NCBI GenBank assembly: GCA_001724245.1
Contig: MEDX01000014.1
Coordinates: 1 to 49,728, forward strand
Length of the DNA stretch: 49,728 nt
Source: Fonticula-like sp. SCN 57-25
Lineage: Eukaryota
Direction of reading: 5' to 3'
Shown here: piece after piece, positions 5,365-31,451 of the stretch
Position numbering within the stretch: the first letter of the stretch is position 1
How the letters are laid out: each line of letters begins with the position of its first letter
Notes under the pieces: model-generated
Databases searched by the model: none
Told to the model about the DNA's origin: nothing
Seen by the model: the letters and a program-made list of their open reading frames with translations, nothing else
Made by a program: the position numbers and the translations under genes

Positions 5365-5880
5365 AAATTTCGTCAAGGCGATTTGAAAGGTGAGGGTTAT
5401 TTTAGTATCAAGAAGACAATCAACTGTGTATTATTTCGCGTATGGATTTTAGCATACTGTATTTTATCGATTTGAATAAACGCGGCGTGTCTCAAAAGAA
5501 AGAAAACCCACACGCTAGAAGCGGCGCAGATCCCTTTACGGTTATTGGTGTTATGATAGCAGTGCAAGCGCACACGCGCGTCACTGTGGAATGGGCAAAA
5601 ACGAATGGGCAAAAACGGTATAGTACGATACGGTACATCATGTCAGATTCTCCAAATATTACAGTTCGCACGCGCTGCCCCTCAAGTGCAATAGTCACTT
5701 CTGCTGTTGATACAGGTTCCCCGCAGGTTCGGTCGCGCAGTGCCGACACTCTACTCCTATAGGGCTCAGACGCGTAGTGTAGCTGTTTCTAACGTGGAGA
5801 GCGTTTGAGGTTGTGTGTGTGTGCACGTTGTTTGCCACATTCGCGTTTCCACGTATTGTCTATACCTTCGCCGTTTAGCC

Positions 5881-8139: not shown

Positions 8140-8900
8140 TTAATAAGTGAGGCATCGCAAAGCCCGCTGTTCACAGCAGCGTCGTTCGTGTATGGAGACC
8201 AATACTGCACTGTTTAAACAATGAAACCGGCACTAGATTGATATGATTCATCCTTCAAACAGTGAGGCATGCAGACCCCTCTGTTCACAGCAGCGTCGTT
8301 GGTGTATGAAGACCAATATCGCACTGTTTAAACAATGAAACTAATACATGGTTGATCTGATTCATTGTTTGAACTAAGTGCAAACTGTTCCTGACCGCAT
8401 TGTTGGCGTATGTAGATCAATGTTGCACTGTTTTAACAATAAAACGGATCAGGTTTAATATGATTCATCGTTCCAACAGTGAGGCATCGCAGCCCTGCTG
8501 TTCACAGCAGCATTGTCGCTGTATGGACATCGATATCGCACTGTTAAAAATTGAAACTGACAGAGGGTTGATATCATTCATCGTTCAAACAGTGGGACAT
8601 TGCAGCACCGCTGTTCACCGCAGCATTGTCGGTGCATGGGAGACCAATATCGCACTGTTTAAACAATGAACCAGGCATGCTTCAACCTTCAAACAGTGAA
8701 GCACTGGAGTCCCACTGTTCACAGGAGCATTGTTGATGTATGGAGCTTAATATTTCACTGTTTAATGAAACGGACACAGGGTTGATATGATTCATCGTTC
8801 AAAATATGAAGCGTCGTAGCGCGCGCACTGTTCGCAACAGGGTCGGTAGTGATCGCACTGTTTAAGCAATGAAATGATTCGTCGTTCGAACAGTGAGGTG
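8140..8900. repeat. Degenerate tandem array, ~100-115 bp unit, about 7 copies, with internal inverted repeats
   Basis: Recurrent blocks AGTGAGGCAT, CTGTTCACAGCAGC, GCACTGTTTAAACAATGAAAC, GATATGATTCATCGTTCAAAC; unit starts near 8146, 8261, 8377, 8478, 8591, 8695, 8806. Confidence 0.88.
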
Positions 8901-11647
8901 CACTCTCGAAGTATAATACAGGACAAACACTCGCGGTCAACGATACACAGGTATGTCAAAGGAAACATGGTATGGGTAAAACTGAACTCCGCTCGTTATC
9001 AGCTGCGTTTTTGAACGTTGAAAGGTCTGTGCGTGAGAGTAAGGTTATAATGAGAATACAATTTCCTGGAAAGCACAGTATCGTGCACCTGACTGAGATT
9101 TGTGGACTGAGAGACATTGTTGTTGCGTTGCGGTACCAACTGAGCATAACCAAGGCACAGTCGTGTCGTCGCACAGTCGACAAAGATGTATATGAGAGAA
9201 TCCGTTGCATAGGTCGGACGGTCGCTTTGGTCTGAACCGAAGTCTGCCACCATTCGAGAGGTAAGTTCGTGCACAGATTCATTCATGTAGGCGGACGCAC
9301 GGGTCTCGTCACTCGGACTATCCAGCGGGCTTCCGCAAAGCATTCATTCAATTGATACCTATCCTTTCTAGACTCAGATACACTTTCCGAGCGGCCAGCG
9401 GAAATCCTGGAAGCAAGACGGCCGCCAGCTGGTCGACGGAAGGATAGATGCACCAAGTGTAAGAGAGGTGTGCCAAGGATCAGGGTAAGACAAAGTGTAT
9501 TGAAAGGTTACACAGGAATCCGAGGGAAAGGCACGAGATCCAACCACGTGGATCACTGTGCACAAGACTGCCACAGCAGATATCCTACACAAGCGCTGAA
9601 ACGATGGCTGAAGCAGCTATGGCCTGCCGAACTGAAGATGGGGATTTCAGGTCCGTGGCACCGGCTCAGGAGTGTGTCGTCTGCAGGGAAAGAGCCGTTG
9701 TGCGATAAAACGTTAAGGAGGCACTATAGAAATGGGGAATGAAAGGGCAATAGCTTGGAAGAACTGCATACTTGAGCAGAGTGACTCCTTCTCGAGGAAC
9801 AGGAAATAGAGAGGGACAGGGTACCTTACAATTACGGAGTCAAAGGAATACACTCAATCATCGACGTTTTTATTATTCGATCGTAGTTGATATTCTAACC
9901 AATGACAGATCTGGGTTTTAAAAAGTTCTGATGTGATTGGTAGAGTAAAAGAATAGGAATCTACACCTATACCTTTCTTTTGCGCAGAGTGAGAGCATCT
10001 TTATTGTGGTCCTTCTTTTCATGGTATGCGAAAAAGAGGGGACAGCTTCGCCCGGAGCGTCGAAAAGGCGCGTCGTGACTCTTGCTAGGCATTCCGGTAG
10101 GGAGAATGCCGCAAGACTGCTCTTACTGAACCCCACAAGCGCGAGTACTGCTAAAGTGTGGATTTCAGATACAGAGGGAACTCATGCCGAATGTGACGAT
10201 TGTGCTTTATGGTTTATGAGTTGTTACACAAGGTGCGTCACATTAGCTCTGGGAACTAACGCTGTGGTCGTCTCAGTGCTCTAGCAATCACAGGATTTAC
10301 GATCACGTCACTTACCATCCCACTGTCACCATTCCATGTCACCATTCCTCACACCTGTCACCATTGTCTCCGTATTACCTTTTGTAGCTCTTGTGTCCTT
10401 TGTCTTCGTCTTTGCCCTCGTGTCTCTCTCTGAGCTCTACTCTCTGCAAGTCAATAAACCTCTACAACCTCAGCAAGGTGTATTACCTTCTCCCTCATCA
10501 CACGAACGCGCCTACTCAAGGAACCAGTCGAAGCGCAAGACGACGACAAAAAGACCTTTCAAACATAGGTGTGAGAAGTTTTAGACGTTGGACGAATAGC
10601 GCGCAACTTTGCGCTGAGATTGTCTTCACTCCGTCATCTGTCAGGAACCACCCCTACCACATCTATACATTCCGCGTCGTCCTTTACCACGTTCATCGGT
10701 TCCGTCAGGAGCCACCTCCACCACCGCCGCCCGTGCCGCGCCCTCCTGCACCTCACGCATAGCGTTTTTAAACGGCTTCACTGAACTCGTCTTGTCGCGA
10801 GCTCTCGAACGACCCCTAAACCATCGCTCTACGACAAGTATTCGCGGAGATACGAGCTCCCGCCGCTACACACGATCAACGATTTGCCGATACCTTCACG
10901 GTCAACCATCGTCCCAGACGACGACCCCCGATCGAGCCAACACCATCGCTTACCCAGCACACGCGCACACACGTGCTAGGCAACTAGGACGTTCACACGC
11001 AGGAACAATAGCGCACACTAGAGCTGGTCGGCAGGACGCCCTCGCCAATAGGGCAACTTAACGTACTCGTTTCGCAGCTTATCTTCGACTAGTCGAGCCC
11101 TTTGATTGTATTTTACTCTGGAACTTGCCTCGTGGCACCGTATTCTGTATTCTTTTCTTTGTGGTACAATTTGTACCAGTTCAGAACCACTGTCACAACG
11201 CGGCCTGTAGCAGCATGCATCTTCTGCTTTACTTGTCTGTCACAAGGATTTGTACGGCATCAGAATATTCCCTTATATAATACTGGGAACCGAAAGAACC
11301 GGACCGGACATGGCAGTCTGCATGTTCCTGGATTGCTAGCAACCGTTCGCACCCTCACGCGTAGCTTTCGGTATGCTCTCTTCCTTTCTGACTGATTTTT
11401 TTTCTCTTTGTACAATAGTTTGCATCTATTCGGCAAGACAGATCTCCGCGGCAGTCCAGAAAGAGACCTTAATGAAGTCACTCACGATGTCTGAGCGATA
11501 GGTACATCAACAGCAAACGCTATACGATAGAGAACGCTTCGCAAGTATCGCGACTAACAATGCCAGTGTGTATCTGTATTCCACAATCATGATGATGTTT
11601 TGTCGATGATTAAAACCAAAAAATGAATCTAAAAGAACAAGAATTGC

Positions 11648-13312
<1,665 letters not shown>

Positions 13313-13953
13313 TCTCGAGACTTCTATGACATGCAGGAATGAGCAAATTATTGTCCGTCCTACACGCAGCAAAGGCATAGGTGACCCCAACGTACACGGC
13401 CGATCACTGCAACAGTACAAAAAAAGAGGGCACAAGGTGTCTCGGTCCAAGCGGTCGTGGTCTGCACTTAGTTTTGAACTGAGACAGAGCAAATCCAGCA
13501 ATCAACGAACAATCAGACAAATTGGTTGCTGACGCAATCACCGTGTGGTCGTAGCATATTACCAATATAATTTTATCATTCAGCACGGAAGGGCACAAAG
13601 GTTGTACTGGCAAGCCAGTTGTGCGGAATATCGAGGTACGTGGTAACTCTTTTTGAGTGCGAAGAATAGTTATTGGCTTAGTGGGTTGGCTCATATGCTT
13701 CTATCAAGCAAACGCGGCGACTCGCTGACTCGTGAGTCCGACGAAACATTTACAGTCATCAAATGAACACAGTGACAAGGGACGGCTGAGCTGGTGTGGC
13801 AATGGACTTTTCCCATTGAAGTCCTAAAGCGGGATGTGTCAACAGATGCGCAGCACCAGTGAGGATATATGGCAAAACTTTCAATCACTACGTTGACATT
13901 ATATATTCAATATTTCTCTGAGTTAGTTCTGGTCTTCTACAGTACGAGCGAGC

Positions 13954-15122
13954 TTAAACACCCAAGGCCATATCCTTCTTGATCTCAGCAATGGCGAGAC
14001 CGGGGTTGAGGCCCTTGGGGCAGGTGCGGGTGCAGTTCATAATCGTGTGACACCGGTACAAGGAGAAGGGGTCCTGGAGCTTGGCGCGGCGCTCAGCACC
14101 AAACTCGTCCTAAAGCACGAATGAGAAAAACAAGAAATAAGAGGAGATGTCTCCAAAGGCGCACTCTGCTGTCAGCCATCCACCGGTACGCCTGCAAAAG
14201 GACGGCAGGGCCCAGGTACTTGTCCTGGTTCCACCAGTAGCTAGGGCACGAAGTACTGCAGCAAGCGCAAAGGATGCACTCGTACAGACCGTCGAGCTTG
14301 GCACGGTCCTCAATCGTCTGGAGGTTCTCCTTGGTGGGGTCCGCAAGAGGCGCCTTCTGCTTGAGCCAGGGCTCAATCGACTTGTATTGCTTGTAGAAAT
14401 TGTTCATGTCGGGCACAAGATCCTTAATCACATACATGTGAGGAAGAGGGTAGATCTTGACTGCAATACACCCAATGGCGCATTAGCACAATACTCTGAA
14501 AAAGGAATGGTGCGTCATACCTGGGCTACCAGTCTCGATGTGGCAGAGGCACGCAAGCGTGTTGCTGCCGTTGATGTTCATGGCGCACGAGCCACAGATA
14601 CCCTCGCGGCACGAGCGGCGGAAGGTGAGGGTGGGGTCAACCTCGTTCTTGATCTTGATAAGAGCGTCCAGGATCATCGGGCCGCACTTGGACAGGTCAA
14701 TTGTGAACGTCTCAAGACGGGGCTTGTCATTGGGAACCTCGGGGTTCTGCGCACGGGTTAGTACCGGCGCCGCTAAGGGATTAAAAAAACGAGAGCAACG
14801 AGCAAACAACATAATAAAAGCCAACTGCTCAAATTTTACCCAGCTAATTATAATCGAATCCCAACGTGTGCTGGACTGCGTAACATACCCAGCGGTAAAT
14901 CTGGAACTCCTGCATGCGCGGGGCAGGAGCGTCCGGGGCAGCGGCCGCAGCCGAAGCAGTCTCGCTCTTGGGAACAATCGTCGCCTGGAGAGCAGGGGCG
15001 CTCACGCCAAAGGCGCGCGCCTACACGCAACAAAAAGCCCATTCAGCACAAGGTCCATTTCAAGGGAAAGGTCGTACGTTGCGAGCAAGGAGTGACGTCG
15101 AACGGGCAAATGCCGGGATCAT
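13954..15122 (-). CDS. SDHB: Succinate dehydrogenase iron-sulfur subunit, mitochondrial
   Basis: [60 protein letters not shown]; presequence [14 protein letters not shown]; several introns. Confidence 0.97.
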
Positions 15123-16234
15123 TTTTCTCCTCTTTACTAAAAAAAGGCAAAGGTTCAGCCGACTGTCTCGCTTAACAAAATTGCCTGTAGGCGTCGCCAC
15201 TGGGTCACAATGGCGGCCAGTCACTGGGAAAGCGTACCAGGCCCGCGCCGAAGAAGGTCGGAAAAAAGCGGAAAGAACAAAATCAAGGGCAGAGCCAAGG
15301 GCAGAGTTTGCAGTTGTATCAGTTTTCTTTTTTATCACATGGGGCAATGTAAAATCTGGGGTGGACTTTTTTGTTCATCATTTTCTCGTTGCTCGGTCCC
15401 TCGTGGCACATTTGCTTTTTCTCCCTCCAACATGGTCGAGTCTTAAAGTCTTGCCAAGGTAGCTATTCACATGGCTTGTTCCAACGAAAGCACTCGGATA
15501 AACGAGTAAAGCTGCTCAGGTACGTCTTATTTGTATTTTTTAGAGTGAACAGTTTCTTTGAGCATATGATGACATTTTTCTATTCACACTGTATGAATCT
15601 CTGCATGTTTACCATTCTGCAATCCTGATGCTCCTATAATTATAAGCACTTGTTTCTCGTATTTCATTGAATACGTCTCTAACGCCTTTGTTTGGCAGAA
15701 TCATGCTAGTTTAAGTTTGACCTATTCAAGAGCCAACCCCTATCGTCGGTGTCGGGTGCGTTGCGAACCTCTCTGTAGCTCTTTATGTGCCCTTGCATAT
15801 TATGATGAGTATAAAGCGTAGAGGCTGTTTATGAGTCCTATGATTTTATTTTACTACGTTCCTGATCCCCCTCTTTTTATTTTACTTTGCCGCTCTTTTT
15901 TTATCGCTTTACTCATGCTCGCTCTTTCCGCCCCAGACGCCGCTGCGGTTACGAACTTCCCGGTGTCAGCATAGTCCGCGGCATGACCCTGCCAAGACAT
16001 GCGATTGTCCGCCATAAACCGAGGTGCTTTTGCGGGTCTTTGTCTTTTGTCGCATCCTGTTGTCAGGATATGCAAGGGACTTGTCCGCGGCCAATGGCCA
16101 TATCTAGTTCATTGAGGATTATATAGTATGGTACCGAAATGTATTCAACAGAGAAAAAAATATACTATATTCAACCGAACAACTTTGTTTTACATCGTGA
16201 ACAATGATACTGCACATTTCAACTACTGAGTGTC

Positions 16235-16976
16235 TTACTCTACAGGTGTGCTGAGATCCCGCGCCTTCCGTCTATCCGCCAGCATCTTGACCCTCGTTTC
16301 CATTTCATCCACGCAATCTTTCAAATCATCAATGAAAGCCACAGCTAAAGAGAAAAAACACAAGAAAGTGTGAGTGAGCGCAAAGAACACACTCGCTTAG
16401 CACCGTACCACTGGACAGCAAGTTTCCCTTGGTGGCCTTTGTAAATGTCTCATCAATGGGCAGCAGGTCTTTAAGCTCCTCAAAGAGCGCTCCCATATCT
16501 TTCCTCCTCTTGCGTTCGGCCATGCGGTGACTCATCCTTGTGGGGACATGTTGCCCCGACGATGTTGTCCCTTCTCCGGGCCCGCCGCCAACTTGCACTC
16601 TTGATAGTTGTTTACGTGTCAAGTGGTGCCTCCGCAAAGCGCCGCGTGGATGAGCTCCACCAATTGCATAGACAGTCTCACCCTCGCTCCCGTCATCACC
16701 TACTTCCGGATCAGCAATCTCGTCGTCGTCGTCGTCGTCGTCGAGATCCCCTTCCGAGGACGAGTCGGTATTTTCGGACAACAATCCGCTGGCGGCAGCT
16801 GGGGTAGTTGCGGTGCTCGCAGTGGGAATGTCCGAAGCAGTTATAACAAGAACGGGACCGGGCAATGCGGGAGCAGAGGGGGAGGGATCCCTGGCAGTGT
16901 CGGTTTTGCCGCCCGATGGTTCCACCTCAGCGTCATTCTCGCTTGAAGAATGCTTCCGCTTCAAGCTCGTCTCCAT
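16235..16976 (-). CDS. bHLH(-ZIP) transcription factor, class B E-box binder
   Basis: Basic region SHRMAERKRRKDMGALFEELKDLLP (H-E-R), helix 2 KATKGNLLSS|AVAFIDDLKD across intron ~16408-16344, zipper-like tail, acidic N-terminal part; 5' end may extend upstream. Confidence 0.82.
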
Positions 16977-17528
16977 AGGAGAGACAGGTAGACAAAAGAC
17001 AAACAATGCGTGAAATAAAACGAAATATCCCTACGGTGGCCCGGCTGGTTCTGCAGTGCTGGCCTGCCCTCAATGGCACAAACGGCACCCGGTGTTGGGG
17101 TACGTTCACAGGGAGTATGATAGGTCTGACGTGGTTGGCTGTTGATCGATTTGGCTGCGTTTCCATTGGCGCGCGGATCATTTGACTGTTGTTGATTGGC
17201 TGCAGCTGCTCAGCTGGTCCGGGACCTGGCTCGGGCCTGCAACTTGAGGATGGGTGATGGACAAGAAAGGCAGGCGGCACGCTGCTTGACCAGAATTTAA
17301 AGGGCAACTGTGTATTCGGTGAACAATGAAAGAACAACACCGCGCATTAAATATTTCAAGTACTCCTCTTTGGGGTGTGCCACTAGCAAGACAAAAAGGC
17401 ACACCTGCCATATCCATACCTAAAAAGCTGGTCTCGAAAAAAAAAAGTATATTCGAATTTAATACAATACGACAAACAAAAAAGTGACCCCGCGGAACAA
17501 ACTGCGACCTCTTGGAAACATGTTAGCC

Positions 17529-18444
17529 TTACGACCGCTCCTCGCACCAGTCGTTCTCCTTGCGCACGAGCTCCTCTTCCTCGGGCGTAAAGTCGTTCTT
17601 GATGTTAAAAATGCGGCGAATCTCTTCAGGTGTCTTGCCTACGCACATCATAAAAGTGAGAAAAACCCACAGGACAAGTGTCCACTGTACCCTTGATCAT
17701 GTTGGCGACCGTCTTGCACGTCAAGTCGAGAAGGGGCTTAATGTCCATGTAGTTTGCGGCCTAAGCACGGCAGTTCGTTAGCACACTATAAAGATATCCA
17801 CTCAAAGATATCATTAAAGGGACCAAAATGGTAAAGAAAAACGACGAAACATAAAGACCGATTCCCACCTCCCTGAAAGCTACCCGCACAAAGAAAAAGG
17901 CTGTCGTACAAGAATAAGCTCGAAAAGTGTGCCTTGATCAACCTTGCAAAACTCAAAGTCCCATTCTGAGATATCGTCGGTGCGCTTGGAGACCGATTCG
18001 TCCTCGGGCTGCGGCGGCGGGTCGCTACGGTGACGTGTGCACCACTCCACCACCTTCTGAAGAATCGGCGCCGAAACGTTCATGAGCGGAATGGCCTGGT
18101 CGCTCTCGCCAAAATCTGACAAAGCAAAGAAATGTAAATGGTCCACGAAGATGAAGGCAAAAATAGGGCTCCGAGCGAAAGTGGGAACAAAACACGAAAA
18201 GGAAGACGTTAACTGAATAGAATACAAAGAATGCCCACAGAGATGGCAACAGAAAGTGCCTTTCTGGACGGCAATGAAAAAGAACAATACTAAACAGTAC
18301 AGCAATGTCCCCCCCACACTAAAAAATATCCACATAACGCGCCATACCTTCGATCATGTTCTTGATAAGAACAGACTTTTCAGCCACATCGCGCGGGACG
18401 CGGACCTCATGGTCGTCCGAACTCATAAGTCGCACTTCGGCCAT
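17529..18444 (-). CDS. SKP1: SCF ubiquitin ligase subunit Skp1
   Basis: [76 protein letters not shown]; 3 introns. Confidence 0.97.
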
Positions 18445-18604
18445 TATTCGTCTTTCAATATTGACAAAGAAAATTCACTGCCCTTTCCACAGTCTTTCAC
18501 GACTCTCCAAGAAACGCAGACAAGGCCTACGTCAGAGGAAGCCAAGGTTAACGGATCAACGCGGCCGCCTACCGAACCGATCCAAGACGAATCAGCTTTG
18601 GTGA

Positions 18605-18624
18605 TGACGTCAGATGTGACGTCA
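18605..18624. promoter_or_regulatory. Two perfect CRE/ATF palindromes (TGACGTCA) upstream of SKP1
   Basis: TGACGTCA at 18605-18612 and 18617-18624, ~160 bp upstream of the SKP1 ATG. Confidence 0.55.
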
Positions 18625-18669
18625 GCTACTCCTAGAATAGGGTGTGTACAGTAATCGACTAATCGTAGA

Positions 18670-18698
18670 CTAGACGGAAGCTAGACGGAAGCTAGACG
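18670..18698. repeat. Short 11-bp tandem repeat (TAGACGGAAGC x~2.6)
   Basis: tagacggaagc tagacggaagc tagacgg. Confidence 0.75.
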
Positions 18699-19028
18699 GT
18701 AACTCCAAACTAGAAGCAACTGAAGCAACGATGCACCAACAGGCCGACGGCTCCACGCAGCCATGATAGCGCGGCTCAAGCAAAAAATGGCCATAGTAAT
18801 ATTTTACCGTTCACATCATCCAAGAATAGTAGGTTCCCATCGCCACGACGACGGCAAAAAGTACTGCCGCAAAGGCCATCTGAAAGGTAAAAAAACTTTA
18901 AGGCAGTTCAAAGGGGTGGTACTAATCAAAACACAGTAACCCATGCAATTTTATTAATGCATAATAATCATGATGAGCTGCGAGCAAAGGACGCTATGCG
19001 TAGTGTGCGTGGCTTCTGCCGCCACTCG

Positions 19029-19629
19029 TTAGAAGAACGAAAGGGCGGAGGCAACGGCGGCAAGCAGTGCAGTCACCGAGGCAAACGCCACGGTCTGGAA
19101 GCCGCTGCTGCACTCAAGCTTGACGGACGCGTTGACAGAGGCGGTGCACTGGCCGTCGTCTTGAGTGGTGGTGAGGCAGCCCTCGGAGCAAGCGTTGTCA
19201 GAGCACGTCGCGGTGGTCACCTTCCCACCAGAGCAGGTGTGCTTGCGGTACGAGGAACCAACGGCGATGCAGGAATCAGCAAGCTCACCGGCAATACCAG
19301 TGTACTCACCACTGCAGTCGGTGTTATCATAGGTCAGGTGCAACACATACTGGCCGCTGGCCCTGGGAGGGTAAATCGACTCGGTGCAAACGGTAGAGGC
19401 GGTGACGCCGGCCACGGACGTGCAGACGTCCACGGGAGTCGGGCAAGTTCCAATGCCAGTGGTGAAACTGAACGGAACATCGTCGCACATTGCATTCTTG
19501 TCTAAAAGAGGATGTCAGTGCGTGATGCAGATGTTTCGGTCGCAACGTACGAAACCCGACGACTGAGTTGAGCGCAGAAGCGCAGGCGACGAGGCCAAGA
19601 AGGACGACGGCGGTGGAGCGAGCAACCAT
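19029..19629 (-). CDS. Small Cys-rich secreted, probably GPI-anchored surface protein
   Basis: Signal peptide MVARSTAVVLLGLVACASA, intron 19550-19502, about 12 Cys, C-terminal SSG followed by hydrophobic tail VAFASVTALLAAVASALSFF. Confidence 0.78.
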
Positions 19630-19987
19630 TTTCACTGTTATAGGGAAGGCGACTGGGAGAAGACTGAATTGAGCTTTTATGGGGGTGGGGGGAAAACGTT
19701 TTTCGGACGTTTCTGATCCGAAAAATATGTGAACGGTTCGCATGAAAGTTTTGATCTCGACCAATCACCACGCAACTGTTGCCTCAATTAGGGTTCCGAT
19801 CAGACATTCCATTTCTTCGGAATTTGATAGGGTTCTGTAGGTAATTTTTGTTCCGCAATAGGCAGTGTAAAGTAAGGGGCACGACAGTCGTACGATAACT
19901 GTCTCCTGTCACAAAATTCCAGAGAAATTCCAAGAGGTTCCATTCAAATTTACTCAAAAGCAGAATGCTACAATATTTTTATTTATA

Positions 19988-22900
19988 TCACGCACTAATC
20001 ATAACGACTCCATCGCTCCCGGCCGCAGCCGGTGCGGGTATCCCGCGATCAGGAACATACTCTGTCACTCTCGGCACCATGGTAATGCAATCATAGATCG
20101 GACAGACGGAGAGGCAGAGCGTGCATCCCGTGCAGTCGTCGGTCACCGTGGGCAGATGTGTCTGCGCATCAAACGTAATGGCCTGATAGCCCGCGTCGTT
20201 GCACGTCATGTAGCACTTGCCGCAGTTGATGCAGCGCTCGTCATTGACGACCGCTACGACTTGCGCCTTGTTGTCGAGCTTGCTGTAGGGGCCCAGGCGT
20301 CCGAGCGCCTTGCCAACCAGCTCGTTCAGGCGCGGTACCGCGCGCGCGACCGCAGGCGCTGGGCGCACCAGATGAGCCTCCGACTCAGTCTCCGCCGCCA
20401 GCACGTCAGGAACGCTGAGCGGTCCATCCGCGGCAGCCACCTCTGCTTGTCGCTGAGCACGACGCGCGCGTTCGTAAGGCCCAAAACGCGGGAGTCGCTT
20501 GGTTGAATCGGCTGCGGACGAGACGGTCTCTGACGAACGAATATGGCTCTGCCCGTCCCAGACGCTCGTGTCGGCGAGGTCGGCGCGCGCCTGCATGTAC
20601 AGGAGGCACTGCAGGCCCGTCGTGTAGTCCTGCACGACCGTAAGGTCCTGATTCTGAACCGCCGAGCAGATCTGGACGACGCTGGCGCCGCAGTAGAGGA
20701 ACTCGAGAACGCTCTCGGCAGTGTCGGCGCCGCCCGTCGCGAGGACAGGGTAGTCGGGGAAACGCTGAGCAATTGCTGACACTGCACGCAGTGCAATCGG
20801 CCGGACGGCGACGCCCGATACGCCGCCGTAGGTGGTACGCTTGCTGGCGCCGACGGCAGGCCAAGGCTCCGCAGAGTGCGGGCGCATGCTCATCAGCCCG
20901 CTGACCGTATTGACCGCCGTCACGCCAGTCGCTCCGCCGTCCCGTGCGGCGCCCGCAATGAGAGTAACGTCTGTGATGTTGGGCGTCATCTTTGCAAAGA
21001 AGGGCACAGTGCAAACTTCCTTGACCCACTTGCAAATGTCATGCACAAGGTCCTCCCTCTGGCCGCACGCAAGCCCCATGCCGCGCTCACCCATACCGTG
21101 TGGGCAGCTCAGGTTCAGCTCCACGGCGTCCGCACCGGCCGCGCACGACTTGCGTACGAGCTCCTGCCAATCTTCCTTGACAAAGGCGGCCATGACAGAG
21201 GCGATAATGATGCGGTCCGGAAAGTCCTGCTTCAGCTCGCGGATGGACTCGCACCAGTACTCGGCGCTCTTCTCGGAAATGAGCTCGATGTTGAGGAAGC
21301 TCGTCTGGCCGGGGCCGTACTTGGGCCCGCTCGTTGTGCCGCGGACAATGCGCGGGCTCACGTTTGTCACCCAGTCGCGCTCAACGGCAAAGGTCTTGGT
21401 GACGGCGAATCCCCAGCCGGCCTCAAAGGCTCGGCGAATGATGCTTGCCGACGTGCACGGCGTCGCGCTCGCAAGCCCAAACGGATTGGGGAAACGGAGG
21501 CCGGCCGTCGTCACCGACAGGTCCACCTTGTCAATCTCGGTGAAGAAGCCGGGAAGCTTGGCGACATTACCGACATCAATGCCGCTCAAGGACTGCACAA
21601 AGCGGTGCAGGTGCCACGACGCAGTCTTTCCGTCGTTGACGGCCTCCACGGTGGTCGACGAGCCAACGATATCGCCACCACAAAAGACCCACGGGGCGTC
21701 AAGTGATGTGCCAGAGAGCGGATCGTAGGCGGCCAGGCCCGACATGTCGCTCACCTTGAGCGGCGCCATGGCTGAGAGCACCTCGGCGCTGCCAACATGG
21801 GACCCAAAAGCGCTCACAATGTGGTCGCAGCGCACGCGGATCAGCTGGTCGTCGTCGCGCACGTACTCGCCCGTCTCCAGATCCTTCTCCATCTTGTACA
21901 TTTCAAGCGCATGCACGCGCCCGTCGCGCATAATCACCTGGCGAGGTGCACAGTAGGGCAAGAATTCGCATTTTTCGTGGATTGCGTGCTCCACCTCCTC
22001 GGGCACCGCGCGAATATCCGTGAATCCGCGGCGGAACACCACCGTCACGCGCGATGCACCGCAGCGGAAAGCGCTTCCTGCGCAATCAAACGCCGTGTCT
22101 CCAGCTCCCAGCACAATCACCCTGCCGCGGAGGTCGGGCATCGCGGCCGCTGCAGCAGTGGCCGTTTCGGATTTCGCCCCAGAGCCGCAGCCGCCGCAGC
22201 TTCCACCGCTGCAGCCGCCAGCGCTGGAGAGGCGCGGCTTGGACGCCAGCGAGACCGCCGGAAGGAGATCCTTCGAAGTCCAGAAGCCCTGCTCAGTCGT
22301 GATGCCGTTAAAGGCCGCGTCCACCTTGGCGTCGGGCGCGCCGATGCCGACAAACACGGCCACATAGCCCTCATTGTGAAGCGACTGGACCGTAAAGTCG
22401 CGCCCGAGAGCCTTATCATAGACGATCTTGACACCAAGGTCAAGCATGAGCTGAATTTCAAAAGACACAGCGGCGAAGGGGAGTCGATACTGCGGGATCT
22501 CGGAAGAAGAGAGGCCGCCGGCGTACTTGCCCTTTTCAAAGATGGTCAGGTCGGTGTAGCCGAGGCGCGCCAGGAATGTTGCGCAGGAGATGGACGATGG
22601 GCCAGCACCAACAAGCGCAATCTTGCTGCGGTACGACGCGGGGAGCGACGACAAAGGGGGGAGCGAGGGGTCGCGGATCTGCGCAACGCGCATCTTTTTA
22701 AAGGTCTCAACCGCAAAGTGCTGCAGGCCACCGATATCTACAAACACCAAAGCGTCAGTCGCAAAAAATCAACATATATACAAGCAACGTACTAATTGCG
22801 CCCTCCTCAACGGCGGCGAGATTGCAGCCGCCAACGCAGAGGTCGCTTGTGGGGCAGACCATGCCGCACGTCAGACCGCACGGGTTGTCGGACAAGATGA

Positions 22901-23289
22901 GCTTGGCCGCCCCGTAAAAATTCTTGGAGGCAATACAGGAAATGAATGCCTTGATATCCAGCTGGGTCGGGCAGCTCTTCTGGCAAGGCGCGTCAGCGCA
23001 CTTGAGGCATCGCTGCGCTTCAGCGAGCGCCGCCCGCTCGGTCAACGTCGTCGGCTTGATGTCGCTGAAGTCATTCTTGAATTGCGATCCCTGCAGCAAA
23101 CAACAAAAGGGTAAATACATGGTCAAAGGGGCATGCGGCATAGCGTACGTGGATAGGGATATTGCGCTTGAAATGCGCCTTGGTCTTGTGCGTTTCGCGG
23201 CTCGGCTTGACCGTTGCGTGGGTGTAGACCTTGGGATTCAGCGCGAGATCCTCGATATCCTTTACACCGGAAACTTTGAGCAAACTCAT
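19988..23289 (-). CDS. DPYD: Dihydropyrimidine dehydrogenase [NADP+], single-chain animal type
   Basis: [14 protein letters not shown] and [15 protein letters not shown] Fe-S motifs, [11 protein letters not shown] (FAD), [11 protein letters not shown] (NADPH), [16 protein letters not shown] active loop, C-terminal [23 protein letters not shown]; introns 23148-23091 and 22792-22738. Confidence 0.97.
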
Positions 23290-23671
23290 TGCTGCTTAAC
23301 TATTCGGATCAACACTACTTGATCGCGGTAAACGCTCGTGCACTAGCTGGCGCACCCGGACGTTGGTCCAGGGTCACACGGCCAACGCGCTGTGGGAGAA
23401 AACAACGAAAGTGATAAGGAACGAAAGGGGCTCAACATGTTTAAGTGTTATCTGATTGGTCCGATTTTCTGCTTCTCGACCAAAATAGGAAACGGGAGTG
23501 ATCGAATTCCGAAACACATTCCAGGTACACGCTGTGCGCCATTCTTTCTTTCAATTCTTTTCCATGCTATCCATACCCGGGTATCCATGGATAATGCGGG
23601 CAACGTATGATACATTTAAAGCGCGTTGCATACAAAAGTTGCTCTTACAATAGGTAGCGTATTGATCATAC

Positions 23672-24838
23672 TTACTCTGACTTTCCAATGAGAGGGTCAC
23701 GAATAAGCGGCCACTTGTAGTCCTCCTTGACGTATTCCGTGAGGGAAGCTGCGTACATGTCGTACCGTGCCGTCATAGCAAATCCCCACTTGTCGCGCAC
23801 CTGCCTGCACATGTTCAGATCGCAGTCAGCAAGCAGCACGCCATCCCTCACGCGCGACAGCCCCGGCGTTCTGCTGGCATCGGGCGCGGCGACGTAGCTG
23901 CTGCCGTAAAAGGCGCCAAAGTCCTTGTGAGCCGGCTTGCCATCGCCAGAGGTAAACTCATTCGGAAAGGTCTCCGTGCCAACTCGGTTGATGCTCGCGA
24001 CAAACACTGAATTGGCGATAGCGGCGGTGCGGCCCTCCAGGCCCCACATCGGCTCCGAGAGTGCGCCGACGGTGGCGGAAGGGTTAAAGATGATTTGCGC
24101 GCCGTTCAGCGCGTACATCATCCAGTTCATCGGAAAGTGGCGGCCGTAGCAAATGTTAATTCCAATGCGGCCATACTCAGTCTCAAACACGGGATGCCCG
24201 TCGGTGCCCTCCATGTAGTACGTGCTCTCATTAAAATCGCCGACCCGCGGGATGTGGTTCTTGCGGTGCTTGCCGATGTAGTTGCCCCGGTTGCCAATAA
24301 CAACCGCCGTATTCCAAATGACATCCTGGTGCACGGCGTCGCGCTCAAGCATCGGGGAAATGATAACCATGTTGTACTGCCGCGCCTTGCGCTGAAGGAA
24401 CACGGTGGGGCGGCCGGTGACAGCATCTTCGGCAAACTCGGTCCACGGAAGGCGCTCACGAGTGCACATGAAAAACGGGCAGTGCCACGCCTCCTGCAAA
24501 CAGAGAATGTTTGCGCCCGCCTGGCCAGCCGCGTCCACAAGCTCCTCCACACGACGCTCCAGAGCAGAATACTGCTCATCCACAGTCGCCGTCGTGGGAG
24601 CAACAATCGCATTCTGCAAGACCGCCACGCGAACAACATTAGGCTGACGGCGCTGCTCGGCCGCCGCAGTCAGCTCATAGCCGGCCAAGTCAAAGTTGCC
24701 GCTGCTTGCAAGTGACTGCGCCTCGGAAGGAAGCGTGACCGGACGGCCGCCGCTGCCGTACAGGACGCGCATCACCTCTGAGCGGGAGGGCTCGGACAGT
24801 TCCGACAGAGTCGATTCGAGGCTCTCAAACGTAGACAT
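23672..24838 (-). CDS. UPB1: Beta-ureidopropionase (beta-alanine synthase), nitrilase fold
   Basis: Intronless; [31 protein letters not shown] (E-K-C triad), [14 protein letters not shown]. Confidence 0.97.
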
Positions 24839-25045
24839 GATCAACGGCAGTACGTAAACACGAATGAAACGAGTTTATAAAAAGTGACCACTTGGAATCC
24901 CAAAACTGCACCGAGAGCGAGCTCACACTCCCACGGTGCCCTGGCAAACACAATTTTTTAATCGACCAAAAATGTCAGGGCAAGATAAACGAAACAAGCC
25001 AATCAAATCACAGCATTCCTGACAACAGCCGGGGCACGGAGAACG

Positions 25046-26422
25046 ATGCTGCGTCAGGGTGCGACGGGGATCGCGCGCGGCGGCGCCGGCGCTCGTCTTC
25101 TGTCGACCATTCCTTCATTTAACCATACTCCTCCCACGTACACGGGCCCTTCTGCTGAGGAAGTGTTGCGTCTTCGCAAGGAAAATGGGCACCCGAACCT
25201 GTTCCTGTACTACAAGAAGCCGATCGTGGTGTCGAGCGGCCACCGCCAGTACCTTTATGATGAGAAGGGCAAGCGTTATCTCGATATGATTGCAGGCATT
25301 GTGACGGTGAGCGTGGGCCACACCCACCCTCGCCTCGTGGCCAAGCTGACCGAGCAGGCGCAGCGCCTGTGGCACTCGACCACCATCTACCTGAATGATC
25401 AGTTTTCGACGTACGTCCGCGACCTCGCCGCCAAGATGCCGGGGGATCTCAAGTCAGTCTACGTGGTTAACTCTGGAAGCGAGGCCAACGACCTTGCTCT
25501 TGCTATGGCGCGCGTCTACACGGGCGCTGATCAAGTGCTTGCGCTTCGCAACAGCTACCATGGTATGAGCTACGGCGCCAATGGCCTCACGTCCCTTCAC
25601 ACCTGGCGCCACGACATCCCGCTTGGCCAGCACATCACGCACGTTGCCAACCCGGATCCGTACCGCGGAACGCACGGCTCCGATGTGGGCGCGTACCTGA
25701 ACGAGCTCCGCGAGTCGATCCGCTTTGGCGGCAGCGGGCGTGTGGCGGGCCTGTGGGCCGAGCCCATCCAGGGCATCGGAGGCACGAGCGTGCTGCTGCC
25801 CGGCTACCTTCCGGGCGCCGTGGACATTGTGCGCTCCCACGGTGGTCTCTTTGTGGCCGACGAGGTGCAGACGGGCTTTGGCCGCATGGGAACGCACTAC
25901 TGGGGCTTTCAGATGCACGGCGTCATGCCCGACATTGTCGTCATGGCAAAGGGAATCGGCGCCGGGTTCCCCATGGCCGCCGTCGTTACCACGCCAAAGA
26001 TTGCGCAGGCGTTCACCTCGAGGCTCACGTTTAACACGTACGGCGGCAACCCGCTTGCGTGCGCCGTTGGGCAGGAGGTGCTCAAGATCATCGACGACGA
26101 GAAGCTGATGGAAAACTCGCGCGTTGTCGGAGACCACCTCATGAAGGGCCTCGTCAAGCTTATGGACAAGCACAGCATTATTGGAGACGTGCGCGGCGCG
26201 GGTCTCATGCTCGGCGTCGAGTTTGTCAAGGACAGAGCGACCAAGGAGCCGGCCGGCGCAGAGGCCGCCACCGTCATGGAGACGCTCAAGGACAAGGGCG
26301 TCCTCGTTGGCAAGGGTGGCCTGTACGGAAACTGCCTGCGCGTCAAGCCGCCGATGTGCGTCACAAAGGAAGATGCGGACTTTTTCGTCGACATGCTTGA
26401 CGAGTCCATCAAGGCGCTCTAA
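25046..26422 (+). CDS. AGXT2: AGXT2/PYD4-like class III aminotransferase (beta-alanine/beta-aminoisobutyrate:pyruvate), mitochondrial
   Basis: Intronless; Arg-rich presequence; YLDMIAGIVTVSVGH, VNSGSEANDLA, FVADEVQTGFGRMG, PDIVVMAKGIG (PLP lysine), FNTYGGNP. Confidence 0.92.
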   Translation: MLRQGATGIARGGAGARLLSTIPSFNHTPPTYTGPSAEEVLRLRKENGHPNLFLYYKKPIVVSSGHRQYLYDEKGKRYLDMIAGIVTVSVGHTHPRLVAKLTEQAQRLWHSTTIYLNDQFSTYVRDLAAKMPGDLKSVYVVNSGSEANDLALAMARVYTGADQVLALRNSYHGMSYGANGLTSLHTWRHDIPLGQHITHVANPDPYRGTHGSDVGAYLNELRESIRFGGSGRVAGLWAEPIQGIGGTSVLLPGYLPGAVDIVRSHGGLFVADEVQTGFGRMGTHYWGFQMHGVMPDIVVMAKGIGAGFPMAAVVTTPKIAQAFTSRLTFNTYGGNPLACAVGQEVLKIIDDEKLMENSRVVGDHLMKGLVKLMDKHSIIGDVRGAGLMLGVEFVKDRATKEPAGAEAATVMETLKDKGVLVGKGGLYGNCLRVKPPMCVTKEDADFFVDMLDESIKAL

Positions 26423-26611
26423 AGTGACAGTACGGAAACAACAGAGACGCAACGAGTAATGGAATAGTACATTAATGTCTCTTTAATATATTATTGATAA
26501 ATGTTCTTTCCTATATGCCATATGAATGCTTTTTGGTCACATACACAAAAAATCCCACGATGCATCGCACAAAAAAATCTCATGTGTTTCATCGCGTGCA
26601 TGAACCTCGAA

Positions 26612-28157
26612 TTATATCTGGACGACCGGGCCGTCGTACGGCTTGCGTTCCACCTTGAACTGCCTAGGGTCCGCGGCCTTGTCGCGTCGCTCAATATTGT
26701 CATATGCGCTTCCAAAGCACGAACGCGGGACAAACTTTCCGCTCCCTGGAACGGTGGTCAGCACGCCGTTTTCGTAGACGACGCGGCCCCTCGAGATGGT
26801 GACGGCCGCGACGCCGGTCACCTGCATGCCCTCAACTGCGCCCGCCACACATTAGCAACTTGAAAGTAAGATATTCGTTTGGCCACGCACAAATGTTGTA
26901 GTCAATGTTGTGGTGGTGCGTCTTTGCCGAGATGGTCCGCTTGGCCGCCGGGTCCCACACGACAATGTCGGCGTCGCTTCCCTGCTCGATTCTGCCCTTC
27001 CTAGGGTAGAGCCCAAAGATCTTTGCCGCGGCGGTGCTTGTGACCCTTACAAAGTCGGTCGGCGCGAGCATGCCTGTTTCGACGCCCTTTGTCCAGACGA
27101 TGGCCATGCGGTCCTCGATGCCGTTGACGCCGTTCGGGATCTTTGTAAAGTCGTCCTTGCCGAGCGCCTTTTGGTCGGCGTTGAACGTGCAGTTGTCGGT
27201 CGCAACTGTCGCAAGGTCTCCAACGGCAAGCAAACGCATGAGGTGCTCCTTGGTGGTTGGGTCTGAGCGCAGCGGCGGCGACATGACATACGCCGCGGCC
27301 GCGCGCCAGTCGGCGTTGCAGGCGTGCGAGCCGTCGACCGCGAGGCCCGCCGCAAGCGCCTCTCCAAAGCACTGACGACCCGCGCGGCGCGCGCGGACAA
27401 GCGCATCAGCAGCGCCCTTGCTCATGACGTGAACAATGTACGCCGGCGCGCGAACCTGGTGCGCGATCGTGATGGCGCGCTCGGTCGCCTCGGCCTCGAT
27501 CTCCTCGGGCCGGCTCAGCTCGTGGCCCTCGGGGCCGTGCACGCCGCAGCGCAGCACGTGCTCTTGGCCGGCGGCCACCAGGTCCCCGTTCTCAGCGTGC
27601 ACCATGCCAATGGCGCCAAGCTCGCGGCACCGCGCAAAGCACCTGTACAGCTCAGCGTCGGTAACCATCATCGAGTCCTTGTAGGCCATAAACATCTTGA
27701 ACGACGACACGCCGCGCTCGCCGCAGAGGATCCCCATCTCGGACGAAATGCGCTCGCTCCAGCTCGTCACGGCAACGTGAAGGGCATAGTCGCAGTTGAC
27801 CTTGGGGTCCGCCCACGACCGCCAGCGATCGTACGCGTCGACGAGGCTCTCGGAGCGCGAGGACGGGATCACAAAGTCAATGACGCACGTCGTGCCGCCG
27901 GCCACCGCAGCGCGAGTGCCATGATCAAAGTCGTCGCGGGAAACCGTTCCCATGAACGGAAGCTGAAGGTGCGTGTGCGGGTCGATCCCGCCGGGGATCA
28001 CATACTTGCCCGCCGCATCAATCACGCGCACACCCGCAGGAACGACGAGATCGAGCCCAACCGAGTGCACCTTGCCGTCAACGACAAGAACGTCTGCGCG
28101 CCACTGGCGGTCGTCATTCACAACAATGCCATTCACAATGTGAAGCGCTTGCGCCAT
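26612..28157 (-). CDS. DPYS: Dihydropyrimidinase
   Basis: [63 protein letters not shown]; one intron 26890-26836 (YNI|FEGM). Confidence 0.97.
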
Positions 28158-28411
28158 CAGATCGTTTTTTGATACCGCAATAGGGCAGGGGTTGGGCAGG
28201 GGAAAACAATGAGGGGGTGGAATCTGCCGCTGATTTTTCAATGTTGGAATGTGGCAATCGTGCATGGTCCATGACGCCCCAATCCCATACTCTATCCCTA
28301 TTGCATGTCCGTATCCATACTGTTTGCGGTAAAATATCACAGTGGTTATTGCCTCTTTGACACAACAAATTACAAACTCTCCTTGCGCCTCCTCAAATCT
28401 GATTTCATCGT

Positions 28412-30311
28412 CTAATTCTTGGCGCTCAGCTCAGCGACCCTGTCCTCTGCCTGCTTGGCCTTGGCGAGGGCGGCCGCGACGTCGGCATTCGGCGCGGCGG
28501 CGCCGCCCTTGACCGGGCTCTTGGCGCTACCCGCAGCGCTCTTTTTACTCTTGGCAATCAAGGGGAGGAGCGCGGCCTCGGCCTCGGCAAGCGCCTGGAT
28601 CGCAGAGTTGGCCGCATTCGCGCCGGGCAGCGACGGCTCGGCGACAATAGACTTAACCTGCGCAATGAGATCGGTGGCGGCAGCGTCATCGGCAGAGATA
28701 GAGTCGGCGTTGCAGAGGGACATGAACTCGCCGTGAAGGCGGAGCGCCCTGAGCAGAAGAGCCTGGCGCTCGCGAACAACATTCTGCAAATGCAAGTTAG
28801 CAAGCGGCAATAAAGCGCAGAATGTCCGTACCTTGGCGAGCGCAAAGTCGAGGCGCACGTAGATCATGCTGATGGCAAATGAGCAGAAGCAGAATGCAAA
28901 GAGAAGGAACGGCTCGAGGAGGAGCGAGACGGTGGCGAGCCTGTACGTGACCTGGACGAGCACGTCATGCTCGTTGACAAGGTTTGTCCTCTCACCGAAA
29001 AAGACGACGCGCCCGCTAACATCGAGGTACGTCGCGACGCGCTTGATGCCCTCCTTCTCGAGCGGCACGGCCGAGTGGAACTGAACGTTTGTCGCGCCCT
29101 CGGGGAGGATGACCTCGAGCGAGAACTTGTCGATGGCGATGTTGCTGGGCGCGGCGAGCAGCGGGAAGGTGAGGCAGTACTCTCCCTCCGCCGTGATGCC
29201 GAGGAACGACGACAGCGGCGTGTTGTAACCCTGATACCACGCCGTGTGCCACCCGCCAAACACGGGGAAGCGCGGCTGGATGTCAAGCGACGTCGTCTGC
29301 GTGGCCAGGTTGTGGCGCAGGTTGCTCGTGGAGATGTTGCCAATGGCGTCGCGGTAGTACGTGTCCGTCACGTCGAGCGGCAGCACAAACGACATGCGGC
29401 GCATGGCCGGCAGGCTCTCGGCCGCGCCAGAGTACAGGCGCTGCTGGTACTCGAGGCGGCTGAAAGAGTTCTTGAGAGAAGCGCCGGCGTTGAACAGGCG
29501 GTAGTGGTCCTCAACCGCGAGATTGTTGCCCCAGTGCGAAACCTCAACAACGCGGGCAAGCTCCTCGACAACAAGGAGCGCCGGGGCGCTCTCATAGTGC
29601 ACGCGGAGAGGGGACGTCGAGAACGCAGGAACAGACGGGGTCGGGCCGTACGTGATGCGGCCATTGCTCAGCGAGCCGCCCTCAGTGGAAGACTCCAGCT
29701 TGCCAGCTGGAAAAGTGCGTCAATATCACAGATAGGATGCAGCACATCATGCGCGGAGCGCGGCACGTACGGGCAGGCAGCTGAACAATCGTCTTGGTCT
29801 GCACGGTCGCGTACGGCGAGTACAAGTGCATCAGGCCCTCATAGACAAGGCGCTGGCGCTCATCCTGCGCAATGGTGCGGGGGAGCGGGCTCGCGAGGTG
29901 GGTAAAGACCGCCTGCACGGTCGCAGTCGCCGTTTCCGACGGCGCCAGGGGGGTCGGAAGAGTCACAATGAACTCGCGGAAGCCGCTGCGTGCAATCGTC
30001 AGTTAAATCAAACATCGAAAAGAGAGAAAAACGCACTCTTTCGTCGAAGGAGTAGTCGGCTTGGCGACCACATGGGCACCCGCAAACGTGGTGTTCAGCA
30101 GCGCAAGCTCGCCTTCTCCCTGGAGGAAGAACTGAAAGGTCAGGGCAGGGTGCACGCCCTTGTTGGTCACGACAGCCTTCACGGTCTGGCGAGTGGGCGT
30201 GCCCGTGAGATCAATCCCAAATACGACATTGGTGAGCTCAAGCTGAGCGAGCGCAGGGGCTGCACATAGCGCCAAGAGCAGCGCAATGTACGGGAGCAGG
30301 CGTCGCGACAT
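28412..30311 (-). CDS. RPN1: Oligosaccharyltransferase subunit 1 (ribophorin I)
   Basis: Signal peptide [75 protein letters not shown]; several introns. Confidence 0.95.
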
Positions 30312-30647
30312 TTTCCCTCCACCAAACGATGGATGCCGCGACACAAAAAGACAAAAGAATCGCAACTGATTTCGCTGATTCTCTTCTGATTCTCAATGAT
30401 CGCGCAACGCCCCCGTGAAACTCTGGAACAGTTAAGGGCGTTTTGCTCAAACACCACTAAAGTGCAATAGCGCTTGGGACACACACAATGGCACATAGTT
30501 TAGCTTTGATAGATTGGAGCCAACGAAGCTTTTCTGTAATCAACCGCAGATATCCACACTTTCGGTTGCAGCCTAGCATAAATGCATACACCATCATCCT
30601 TCTATTCATAATTCTGTACACAATACAACTCAATAGAATACACAAGC

Positions 30648-31451
30648 TTACGCGGATAGTTCCAATTGACTCTTTTCTTCAAAAATGTTTCTAAATTCGT
30701 CTGCTGCTTTCCTCCACCTGATCACGGCGAGCGCCTGAAGCAGCGCGTCGCTCATGTCGTCCCTCTTTGTCTCCTCCTCAAACGCATTTTTCGCTTCAGG
30801 CGCAAATGAAAGCATGCCCTCCCGCATAGAGTCCGCAATAATAGTGCGCGCACGCACGACCGCGTCCTTTTTCTTTCCTCTTCCCTCCGGCAGCTCAAAG
30901 AGACCGGCAACGCGCTTTGGTTGGACCGAGGCGGCGCGGCCAAGGAACTGCGCGTGCAAGAGAACTTCCAAAAGGCGCAGCTTGATGGCATGCTCAATGA
31001 CAGTCGCGGCGCCCCCGGACCGGTGGCGCTGCGCTTCAATGAGGTAGAGGTCGGCAGCGGGCAGGCGCGCCGCGAGCGCCACACCGACCGCGGCAAACGG
31101 CGCGGGGTGGTACGGCGAAGGGGAGTGCACTTCAATGCGACGCCACTCGCGCACATGGCCAACAGAAGTAAGGTCAAGGTGAGCAAATGCAAAGTTCTTG
31201 AGGCCGAGATCCATCGACACGATCGACCGCACGGGCACGGGACGCAGGTGCCTCAGTTCGCCGTCAAACTGCGAAGGATCAGTGTTGGCGACGCTCGCAA
31301 GACGCAGGGCCATCTCTGCCTTTACACCAGAGGGACTCAAGCCCATGGACGTGCAAAGGCCGCGCAGCTCGGCGCTGCTGCATTTCCGTAGCCTGGCCAA
31401 CCAAAGTGTCAGTGTCACTTGACGATCAACGGCTCGAGCGCACCATGCCAT
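30648..31451 (-). CDS. Mitochondrial cruciform-cutting endonuclease (Ydc2/Cce1): SAP domain plus RuvC-like resolvase
   Basis: SAP-like LRKCSSAELRGLCTSMGLSPSGVKAEMALRL; IVSMDLGLKNFAF, YLIEAQRHRSGG, KRDDMSDALLQA. Confidence 0.85.
   Translation of the reverse strand: MAWCARAVDRQVTLTLWLARLRKCSSAELRGLCTSMGLSPSGVKAEMALRLASVANTDPSQFDGELRHLRPVPVRSIVSMDLGLKNFAFAHLDLTSVGHVREWRRIEVHSPSPYHPAPFAAVGVALAARLPAADLYLIEAQRHRSGGAATVIEHAIKLRLLEVLLHAQFLGRAASVQPKRVAGLFELPEGRGKKKDAVVRARTIIADSMREGMLSFAPEAKNAFEEETKRDDMSDALLQALAVIRWRKAADEFRNIFEEKSQLELSA

Follow-up and report, generated by a model that had tools for sequence, protein, structure and literature searches.

The stretch of DNA analysed here (the window) comprises the 49,728 nucleotides of contig MEDX01000014.1 in assembly GCA_001724245.1 (Fonticula-like sp. 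SCN 57-25) and holds, at 19988-28157, four adjacent genes for pyrimidine catabolism in the order DPYD(-), UPB1(-), AGXT2-type aminotransferase(+) and DPYS(-). Gene models were built from the listing of open reading frames (ORFs) with their translations, from direct reading of the sequence and by splicing of exons (Table 1). They confirmed that the pyrimidine-catabolism gene cluster is real, and they bore out the coordinates, gene order, strands and spacings of about 190-380 bp given by an initial annotation of the window, the spacers measuring 382, 207 and 189 bp. As that annotation had also held, nothing lies between the genes: the three spacers contain no ORF with a match and no Rfam match, leaving the genes contiguous, and an Rfam search of 17000-31000 matched no family. 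The three introns of the cluster, two in DPYD and one in DPYS, are 58, 55 and 55 nt long and all GT..AG, confirming the expectation of an intron-bearing eukaryote. Pfam assigned the four genes to four different, unrelated families, so that they encode non-homologous enzymes of one pathway and a paralogue array, already dismissed in the initial annotation, is ruled out. Taken strictly, the description of the locus as operon-like proved wrong, since its genes lie on both strands (-, -, +, -): with three genes on the minus strand and one on the plus strand, forming one divergent and one convergent pair, a polycistronic unit is ruled out. Special compaction of the cluster is likewise ruled out, since the stop codon of the neighbouring gene lies 254 bp away from the DPYS ATG, an equally short spacer that makes short spacing the norm of this genome. 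This neighbour had been called RPN1; the gene is present beside DPYS, and Pfam identifies it as ribophorin I.

Table 1 Features of the pyrimidine-catabolism gene cluster in the window.
Feature	Position	Strand	Details
DPYD, dihydropyrimidine dehydrogenase [NADP+], fused eukaryotic form	19988..23289	-	1062 amino acids (aa); exons 23289-23149, 23090-22793, 22737-19988 (including stop); ATG at 23289
DPYD intron 1	23091..23148	-	58 nt, GTACGC..CAG; splicing restores frame and homology
DPYD intron 2	22738..22792	-	55 nt, GTACGT..TAG; junction reads EEGAINIGGLQHF
DPYD-UPB1 spacer	23290..23671		382 bp; UPB1 3' end and DPYD 5' region; GC 0.46; no Rfam family
UPB1, beta-ureidopropionase, nitrilase superfamily	23672..24838	-	388 aa; intronless
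UPB1/AGXT2 divergent region, start codon to start codon	24839..25045		207 bp; GC 0.47; putative shared bidirectional promoter
AGXT2-family class-III aminotransferase, beta-alanine / beta-aminoisobutyrate : pyruvate type	25046..26422	+	458 aa; intronless; Arg-rich N-terminal extension
AGXT2-DPYS spacer, convergent stops	26423..26611		189 bp; AT-rich
DPYS, dihydropyrimidinase	26612..28157	-	496 aa; ATG at 28157; exons 28157-26891, 26835-26612
DPYS intron	26836..26890	-	55 nt, GTGCGT..CAG

By predicted activity, the four genes are enzymes of the reductive pyrimidine pathway (EC 1.3.1.2, 3.5.2.2 and 3.5.1.6, together with a beta-alanine/beta-aminoisobutyrate transaminase). DPYD contains the Pfam domains DHO_dh, Fer4_21 and Pyr_redox_2, matches pig DPD in the PDB (E=0, 1130 bits, chain residues 149-1019) and scores above the NCBIfam equivalog cut-off over its PreA part (379 vs 335 bits). 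The spliced protein can be aligned end to end with DPYD of Heterostelium, Balamuthia, Capsaspora and Bos at 58-62% identity, and its single chain shows the fused layout of an N-terminal iron-sulphur (Fe-S) part, an FAD/NADPH part, an FMN/DHO_dh part and a C-terminal 2x[4Fe-4S] part, with four Cys-rich Fe-S motifs and NLSCPH found. UPB1 has a CN_hydrolase domain (Pfam, 3.4e-59), matches human beta-ureidopropionase in the PDB (1.6e-158, query residues 16-392) and contains the motifs CLQEAW, HRKNHIP and NICYGRH, giving the picture of a nitrilase-superfamily beta-ureidopropionase with an N-terminal extension of the animal/Dictyostelium type. In DPYS, Pfam detects Amidohydro_1, the score exceeds the NCBIfam TIGR02033 cut-off (529 vs 393 bits), and metal-site motifs, TDNC among them, are found. 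Its best structural matches are Dictyostelium dihydropyrimidinase (2ftw, 2e-179, 601 bits) and the human enzyme (1.7e-175, 588 bits), compared with at most 471 bits for bacterial PDB entries (hydantoinases), so that by this measure eukaryotic structures score highest. We take the motifs observed in DPYD, UPB1 and DPYS to have the Fe-S, active-site and metal-ligand roles usual for them. The fourth protein carries Aminotran_3 (Pfam, 7e-91) and is without a close solved relative, the best PDB match being ETNPPL (2e-98, 333 bits). Its best database matches (55-59% identity, 557-583 bits) bear the names AGXT2, alanine-glyoxylate or (R)-3-amino-2-methylpropionate-pyruvate transaminase, which are automatic annotations by their sources, and it contains VMAKGIG, presumably the site of the lysine that binds pyridoxal phosphate.

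By identities and trees, DPYD, UPB1 and the aminotransferase fall with eukaryotic homologues rather than with genes of bacterial pyd operons. For DPYD, identity to amoebozoan and opisthokont homologues is 58-62%, compared with up to 47% over the PreA part for split bacterial forms and 30-31% for the fused-looking forms on contigs L031 and L035. In the UPB1 tree, in which the row of locus L025 is a 40-aa piece that carries no meaning, an eukaryote-type clade including the window gene is split from the bacterial operon type with support 100, and within it the window gene joins two environmental sequences (support 97). The aminotransferase tree, a quick maximum-likelihood tree of 47 rows that includes no animal AGXT2, places the window gene within a 19-row clade of plant and algal AGXT2 and two long-branch bacteria with a support of 98 in the Shimodaira-Hasegawa-like approximate likelihood ratio test (SH-aLRT), and the aminotransferases linked to bacterial pyd operons branch below this clade. 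The assignment to AGXT2/PYD4 in the initial annotation thus withstood the check for a grouping elsewhere, with ETNPPL, GABA-AT or further class-III enzymes (SH-aLRT 98; 583 bits to the best match vs 333 to ETNPPL). The characterisation of all four as eukaryote-type enzymes is upheld by these trees and identities, and for DPYS by the structural scores, as far as lineage is concerned, but the features listed for it are less exclusive to eukaryotes than claimed: nitrilase-fold UPB1 and AGXT2-family genes also occur in bacterial pyd operons (among the 67 metagenome loci described below), UPB1 genes 60-64% identical to the eukaryotic type lie on contigs of bacterial context (L002-L004), and fused-looking DPYD is found on L031 and L035.

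L031:1532-3451 and L035:9729-11708 each give a single tblastn alignment over DPYD residues 10/49-733 at 30-31% identity, on contigs with bacterial-type UPB1, and fused PreT-PreA-like genes seem to exist outside eukaryotes. On L002, L003 and L004 the UPB1 gene is accompanied by bacterial neighbours (L,D-transpeptidase, 3D domain, HAMP histidine kinase, malic enzyme-PTA fusion), with no pyd partner within 9-15 kb. In the UPB1 tree the three form their own clade (support 99) with the window gene outside, a pattern that suggests an old transfer of eukaryote-type UPB1 between domains.

The bacterial counterpart of the cluster was surveyed in a metagenome scan with the UPB1 alignment, which returned 80 loci, 67 of bacterial type (36-42% identity) and 13 of eukaryote type, with partners sought within the fetched flanks. 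Because many contigs are short, the partner counts for the 67 bacterial-type loci are minimum values: DPYS was present in 28, PreA-like DPYD in 32 and an AGXT2-like aminotransferase (36-53% identity) in 13, always on the UPB1 strand and eight times within 160 bp directly downstream of UPB1; at least one partner was found in 44 and all four families in 5. Such pyd neighbourhoods were seen directly in metagenome and genome loci including L017, L024, L025, L055, L071 and L151. Since operons of the same four families are frequent on bacterial contigs, the content of the window cluster is convergent with theirs. The bacterial operons (PreT/PreA or PydA, PydB and PydC with an aminotransferase) resemble the window cluster in having the four families adjacent and UPB1 beside the aminotransferase; they differ in that their genes are co-directional, DPYD is mostly split in two and UPB1 is only 36-42% identical, whereas the window cluster combines membership of eukaryotic clades, a fused 1062-aa DPYD, three introns, mixed strands and an aminotransferase with an N-terminal extension.

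In the reductive pathway, DPYD reduces the base, DPYS opens the ring and UPB1 liberates NH3, CO2 and either beta-alanine or beta-aminoisobutyrate, after which a mitochondrial AGXT2-type aminotransferase passes the last amino group to a keto acid. The four steps convert uracil or thymine to malonate or methylmalonate semialdehyde with release of both ring nitrogens, which are thus recovered. We consider it probable (about 0.8) that the locus is a genuine metabolic gene cluster for reductive uracil/thymine catabolism in a fungus-like eukaryote, composed of eukaryotic genes and convergent on the content of bacterial pyd operons. Each gene would then be its own transcription unit, with UPB1 and AGXT2 transcribed divergently from their common 207-bp region. 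Genes of eukaryotic descent would have been brought together by rearrangement, converging on the content of the bacterial operon, and the linkage may have arisen under selection for co-expression or co-inheritance. The data establish which genes these are, that they are adjacent, that their affinity is eukaryotic and that they bear a common genome signature. The divergent UPB1/AGXT2 arrangement is the sole hint at co-regulation; we infer that the four genes are co-regulated, with a bidirectional promoter shared by UPB1 and AGXT2, that pyrimidines supply nitrogen to the host and that linkage was selected for.

Several observations weigh against this reading. The window is a metagenome assembly, and the pieces listed from independent sequencing runs are only 151-634 bp long, none of them shown bridging two genes. 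The terminal branch of the window aminotransferase is long (1.23) in the quick tree, and because of this branch and the absence of animal AGXT2 from the set its exact placement is soft. In an aminotransferase-based scan, a pyd gene was present in the fetched flanks at only 9 of 80 prokaryotic loci (6 of the 37 at 50% identity or more), so the AGXT2 family is not specific to the pathway. Among the 13 eukaryote-type UPB1 loci, which are mostly short, DPYS is also present in only two (L005 and L008) and the full set in none; the neighbours of L006, L007, L012 and L013 are uninformative. When the upstream regions of the cluster were compared, no k-mer of length 7 or more was common to the three. 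Finally, a Pfam scan of the window ORFs found no transcription factor, transporter or semialdehyde dehydrogenase in the cluster, and in the left flank the sole matches among stop-free ORFs were Skp1 and an SDHB-like Fer2_3 domain, transporters, dehydrogenases and regulators being absent; both scans agree with the initial annotation, which had seen no transporter or ALDH6A1-type gene in the cluster.

Among the alternatives, the one that survives best, itself improbable, is a cluster of three pyd genes in which a promiscuous AGXT2-type gene, serving glyoxylate, alanine or other metabolism, has come to lie by accident. The low frequency of pyd genes at prokaryotic AGXT2-homologue loci (9 of 80) agrees with it, as do the description of human AGT2 as promiscuous and the alanine:glyoxylate activity of Arabidopsis PYD4 in vitro (PMC9309667). 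The position of the aminotransferase argues the other way: it is placed between UPB1 and DPYS and diverges from UPB1 over 207 bp, and bacteria repeat the association in the 13 of 67 UPB1 loci with an AGXT2-like gene, 8 of them with that gene directly downstream of UPB1. Further support for a fourth pathway member comes from Arabidopsis, where PYD4 is co-expressed with PYD1-3 and all four PYD genes, BAT/PYD4 included, are up 2-6 fold under moderate nitrogen limitation (PMC9309667, PMC2713857), where co-regulation of the PYD genes by nitrogen supply is documented (PMC2713857) and where pyd2 and pyd3 mutants are unable to draw nitrogen from uracil (PMC2713857, PMC9309667). Clustering lends independent support at the genome level to AGXT2/PYD4-type enzymes carrying out the fourth step, a role that in plants is still only predicted.

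Much less probable is the horizontal acquisition of a bacterial pyd operon that was later given introns and eukaryotic promoters. The same four families do form operons in bacteria (all four in 5 of 67 loci), close AGXT2 relatives (51-59% identity) occur in Verrucomicrobiota and Desulfobacterales, and UPB1 genes as much as 60-64% identical stand on contigs with bacterial neighbours. Against these points, DPYD is fused and shares 58-62% identity with its amoebozoan and animal counterparts, the clades of UPB1 and the aminotransferase are eukaryotic and apart from the operon-linked genes, the bacterial-context UPB1 genes of L002-L004 form a clade (support 99) without the window gene, the best DPYS matches are eukaryotic, and the cluster has three introns and mixed strands. 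The nesting within bacterial homologues that an acquired operon would show was not found; the affinities are eukaryotic.

A metagenome chimera joining different genomes or loci is slightly less probable still. The contig is of metagenome origin, with a bioreactor metagenome as the best-matching run, and none of the short pieces listed from independent runs is shown to span two genes; yet codon usage and GC3 are uniform across the cluster and its flanks. Correlations of relative synonymous codon usage (RSCU) are 0.83-0.95 among the four cluster genes and 0.76-0.92 between these and ribophorin, BRE1, eIF3a and a 1601-aa ORF (41775-46580), the GC content of third codon positions (GC3) is 0.73-0.82 for the cluster genes and these neighbours, and intron style is likewise uniform over the cluster and both flanks. 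Furthermore, each of the proteins DPYD, UPB1 and aminotransferase has identical records from 4 contigs, and for all three the longest contig measures 35,604 bp, which fits their co-residence in another assembly. Four sequencing runs were compared, of which X3 and X4, although filed under separate studies and years, agree in every contig, depth and difference tabulated and should therefore count as one data set. Run X2, from another study, covers all 30 bins of 17000-31000 at similar low depth, with 30 of 43 contigs at least 99% alike; the joints listed in the run comparison, whose sides are short (24-28 nt), probably stem from other organisms. A misjoin of the contig is unlikely because codon usage is uniform with the flanks, records of three of the proteins fit their co-residence in another assembly and X2 covers every bin.

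Equally improbable is that rearrangement brought the genes together neutrally, without significance for selection or regulation, for which the lack of a common promoter motif and of any regulator or transporter in the cluster might speak, but against which stand the chance of finding four given genes consecutive, by our arithmetic about 1e-11 (order 24/N^3 for ~10^4 genes), and the recurrence of the coupling in bacterial operons, in DPYS-UPB1 fusions and in the UPB1/DPYS neighbours of L005.

Coupling of the same genes was also seen elsewhere. Contig L005, GC-rich and 3.7 kb long, carries UPB1(+) and DPYS(-) at 194-3703 as a convergent pair 357 bp apart. The N-terminus of both proteins is extended by a hydrophobic, signal-like stretch, which is unusual for these cytosolic enzymes; the contig may come from an alga in which they are targeted to an organelle or the endoplasmic reticulum. 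The 2712-bp metagenome contig L008, read with translation table 6 (TAA/TAG=Gln), contains at 2-2698 one 898-aa frame made up of a DPYS domain, a linker of ~90 aa and a UPB1 domain. Five in-frame TAA and seven TAG codons occur in it, several at conserved Gln positions of both enzymes, and the sole TGA marks its end; it looks like a DPYS-UPB1 fusion protein from an organism with the ciliate code. A second, GC-rich lineage with the standard code is represented by P0368 (586 aa, on a 13,581-bp contig), in which the C-terminal part of DPYS is followed by an Ala/Pro linker and UPB1. P0368 is 51% identical to the L008 frame across both domains and is among the nearest relatives of the window UPB1 in the tree. 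Literature searches found no report of a DPYS-UPB1 fusion.

Full-text literature searches found no report of a eukaryotic pyd cluster either, in agreement with the initial annotation, which knew of no description of one. Two genome-wide surveys of fungal clusters (PMC4256263, PMC11381361) are without the pathway terms searched in their main texts, while their supplementary genome-wide cluster tables may hold entries. The cluster was thus probably unreported before. The wider claim, that this is the first complete eukaryotic pyd cluster formed from vertically inherited genes, convergent with bacterial operons and one instance of a broader, unreported coupling in eukaryotes (the fusions and the alga-like L005), we hold only tentatively and rate at somewhat less than even odds. 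If true, such wider coupling would point to selection for co-inheritance, for co-regulation or for channelling of the carbamoyl-beta-amino-acid intermediates. Eukaryotic clusters of primary metabolism are few and serve to ask why genes cluster, whether for co-regulation, for co-inheritance or for avoidance of toxic intermediates, and a complete four-step cluster of eukaryotic genes with the content of a bacterial operon would illustrate convergence cleanly. In addition, it would suggest that a fungus-like organism of bioreactor and wastewater samples draws nitrogen from free pyrimidines. The understanding of the pathway and of gene clustering is left unchanged by the cluster.

The same four enzymes are known in eukaryotes from dispersed genes (PYD1-4 in Arabidopsis; DPYD, DPYS, UPB1 and AGXT2 in humans), the human genes lying on four chromosomes. 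In yeast, the DAL genes form an allantoin gene cluster. Fungi are well known for gene clusters that break down nitrogen sources, and the window cluster is a further example: as in hxn and DAL, a fungus-type genome groups non-homologous genes of a single catabolic pathway that yields nitrogen. Unlike the hosts of hxn and DAL, the host of the window cluster belongs to an uncultured lineage outside the sampled fungi, with an eIF3a at most 51% identical. The hxn cluster of Aspergillus nidulans differs in serving another pathway, being nicotinate-inducible, with its own transcription factor HxnR and genes co-induced experimentally (PMC5746545), whereas the window cluster is without a regulator or transporter; the title of the hxn paper speaks of convergent evolution in fungi and bacteria (PMC5746545). 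In Arabidopsis, in contrast to the window, the genes are unlinked (At3g17810, At5g12200 and At5g64370, PMC2713857; At3g08860, PMC9309667), and the pyrimidine-pathway genes of Bodo saltans carry unrelated gene identifiers (PMC4728078).

The flanks of the cluster encode ordinary eukaryotic housekeeping proteins (ribophorin I, a Ydc2-type mitochondrial resolvase, BRE1, eIF3a, Skp1 and an SDHB-like protein). Nearly all named matches of the window eIF3a are fungal (Glomeromycotina, Mortierellomycotina, chytrids and Dikarya) at 44-51% identity, and ichthyosporeans match at 44-45%. Since the matches are mostly fungal yet only 44-51% identical, they mark the host as an unsampled, fungus-like opisthokont, which we place by these affinities as an uncultured, deep-branching, holomycotan eukaryote outside the sampled fungi. 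A search for repeats gave nothing beyond short two-copy matches: an 18-nt direct repeat at 19845-19862 and 28167-28184 (83% identity) and a 24-nt inverted repeat at 18786-18809 and 28327-28350 (79%) lie just outside the cluster ends, both probably by chance. The 1601-aa open frame at 41775-46580 (+), in a region of GC 0.67 and with cluster-like codon usage, has no Pfam domain above threshold, HALZ being sub-threshold only. On the other side, 16 kb of the window (4000-20000) have a GC content of ~0.49 compared with ~0.60 elsewhere and contain intron-split genes for a kinase (12382-13116), the SDHB-like protein (14483-15001), a bHLH protein (16329-17030) and Skp1 (17880-18353), of which the kinase and bHLH ORFs show a lower GC3 (0.53-0.57) and correlate poorly in codon usage with the rest.

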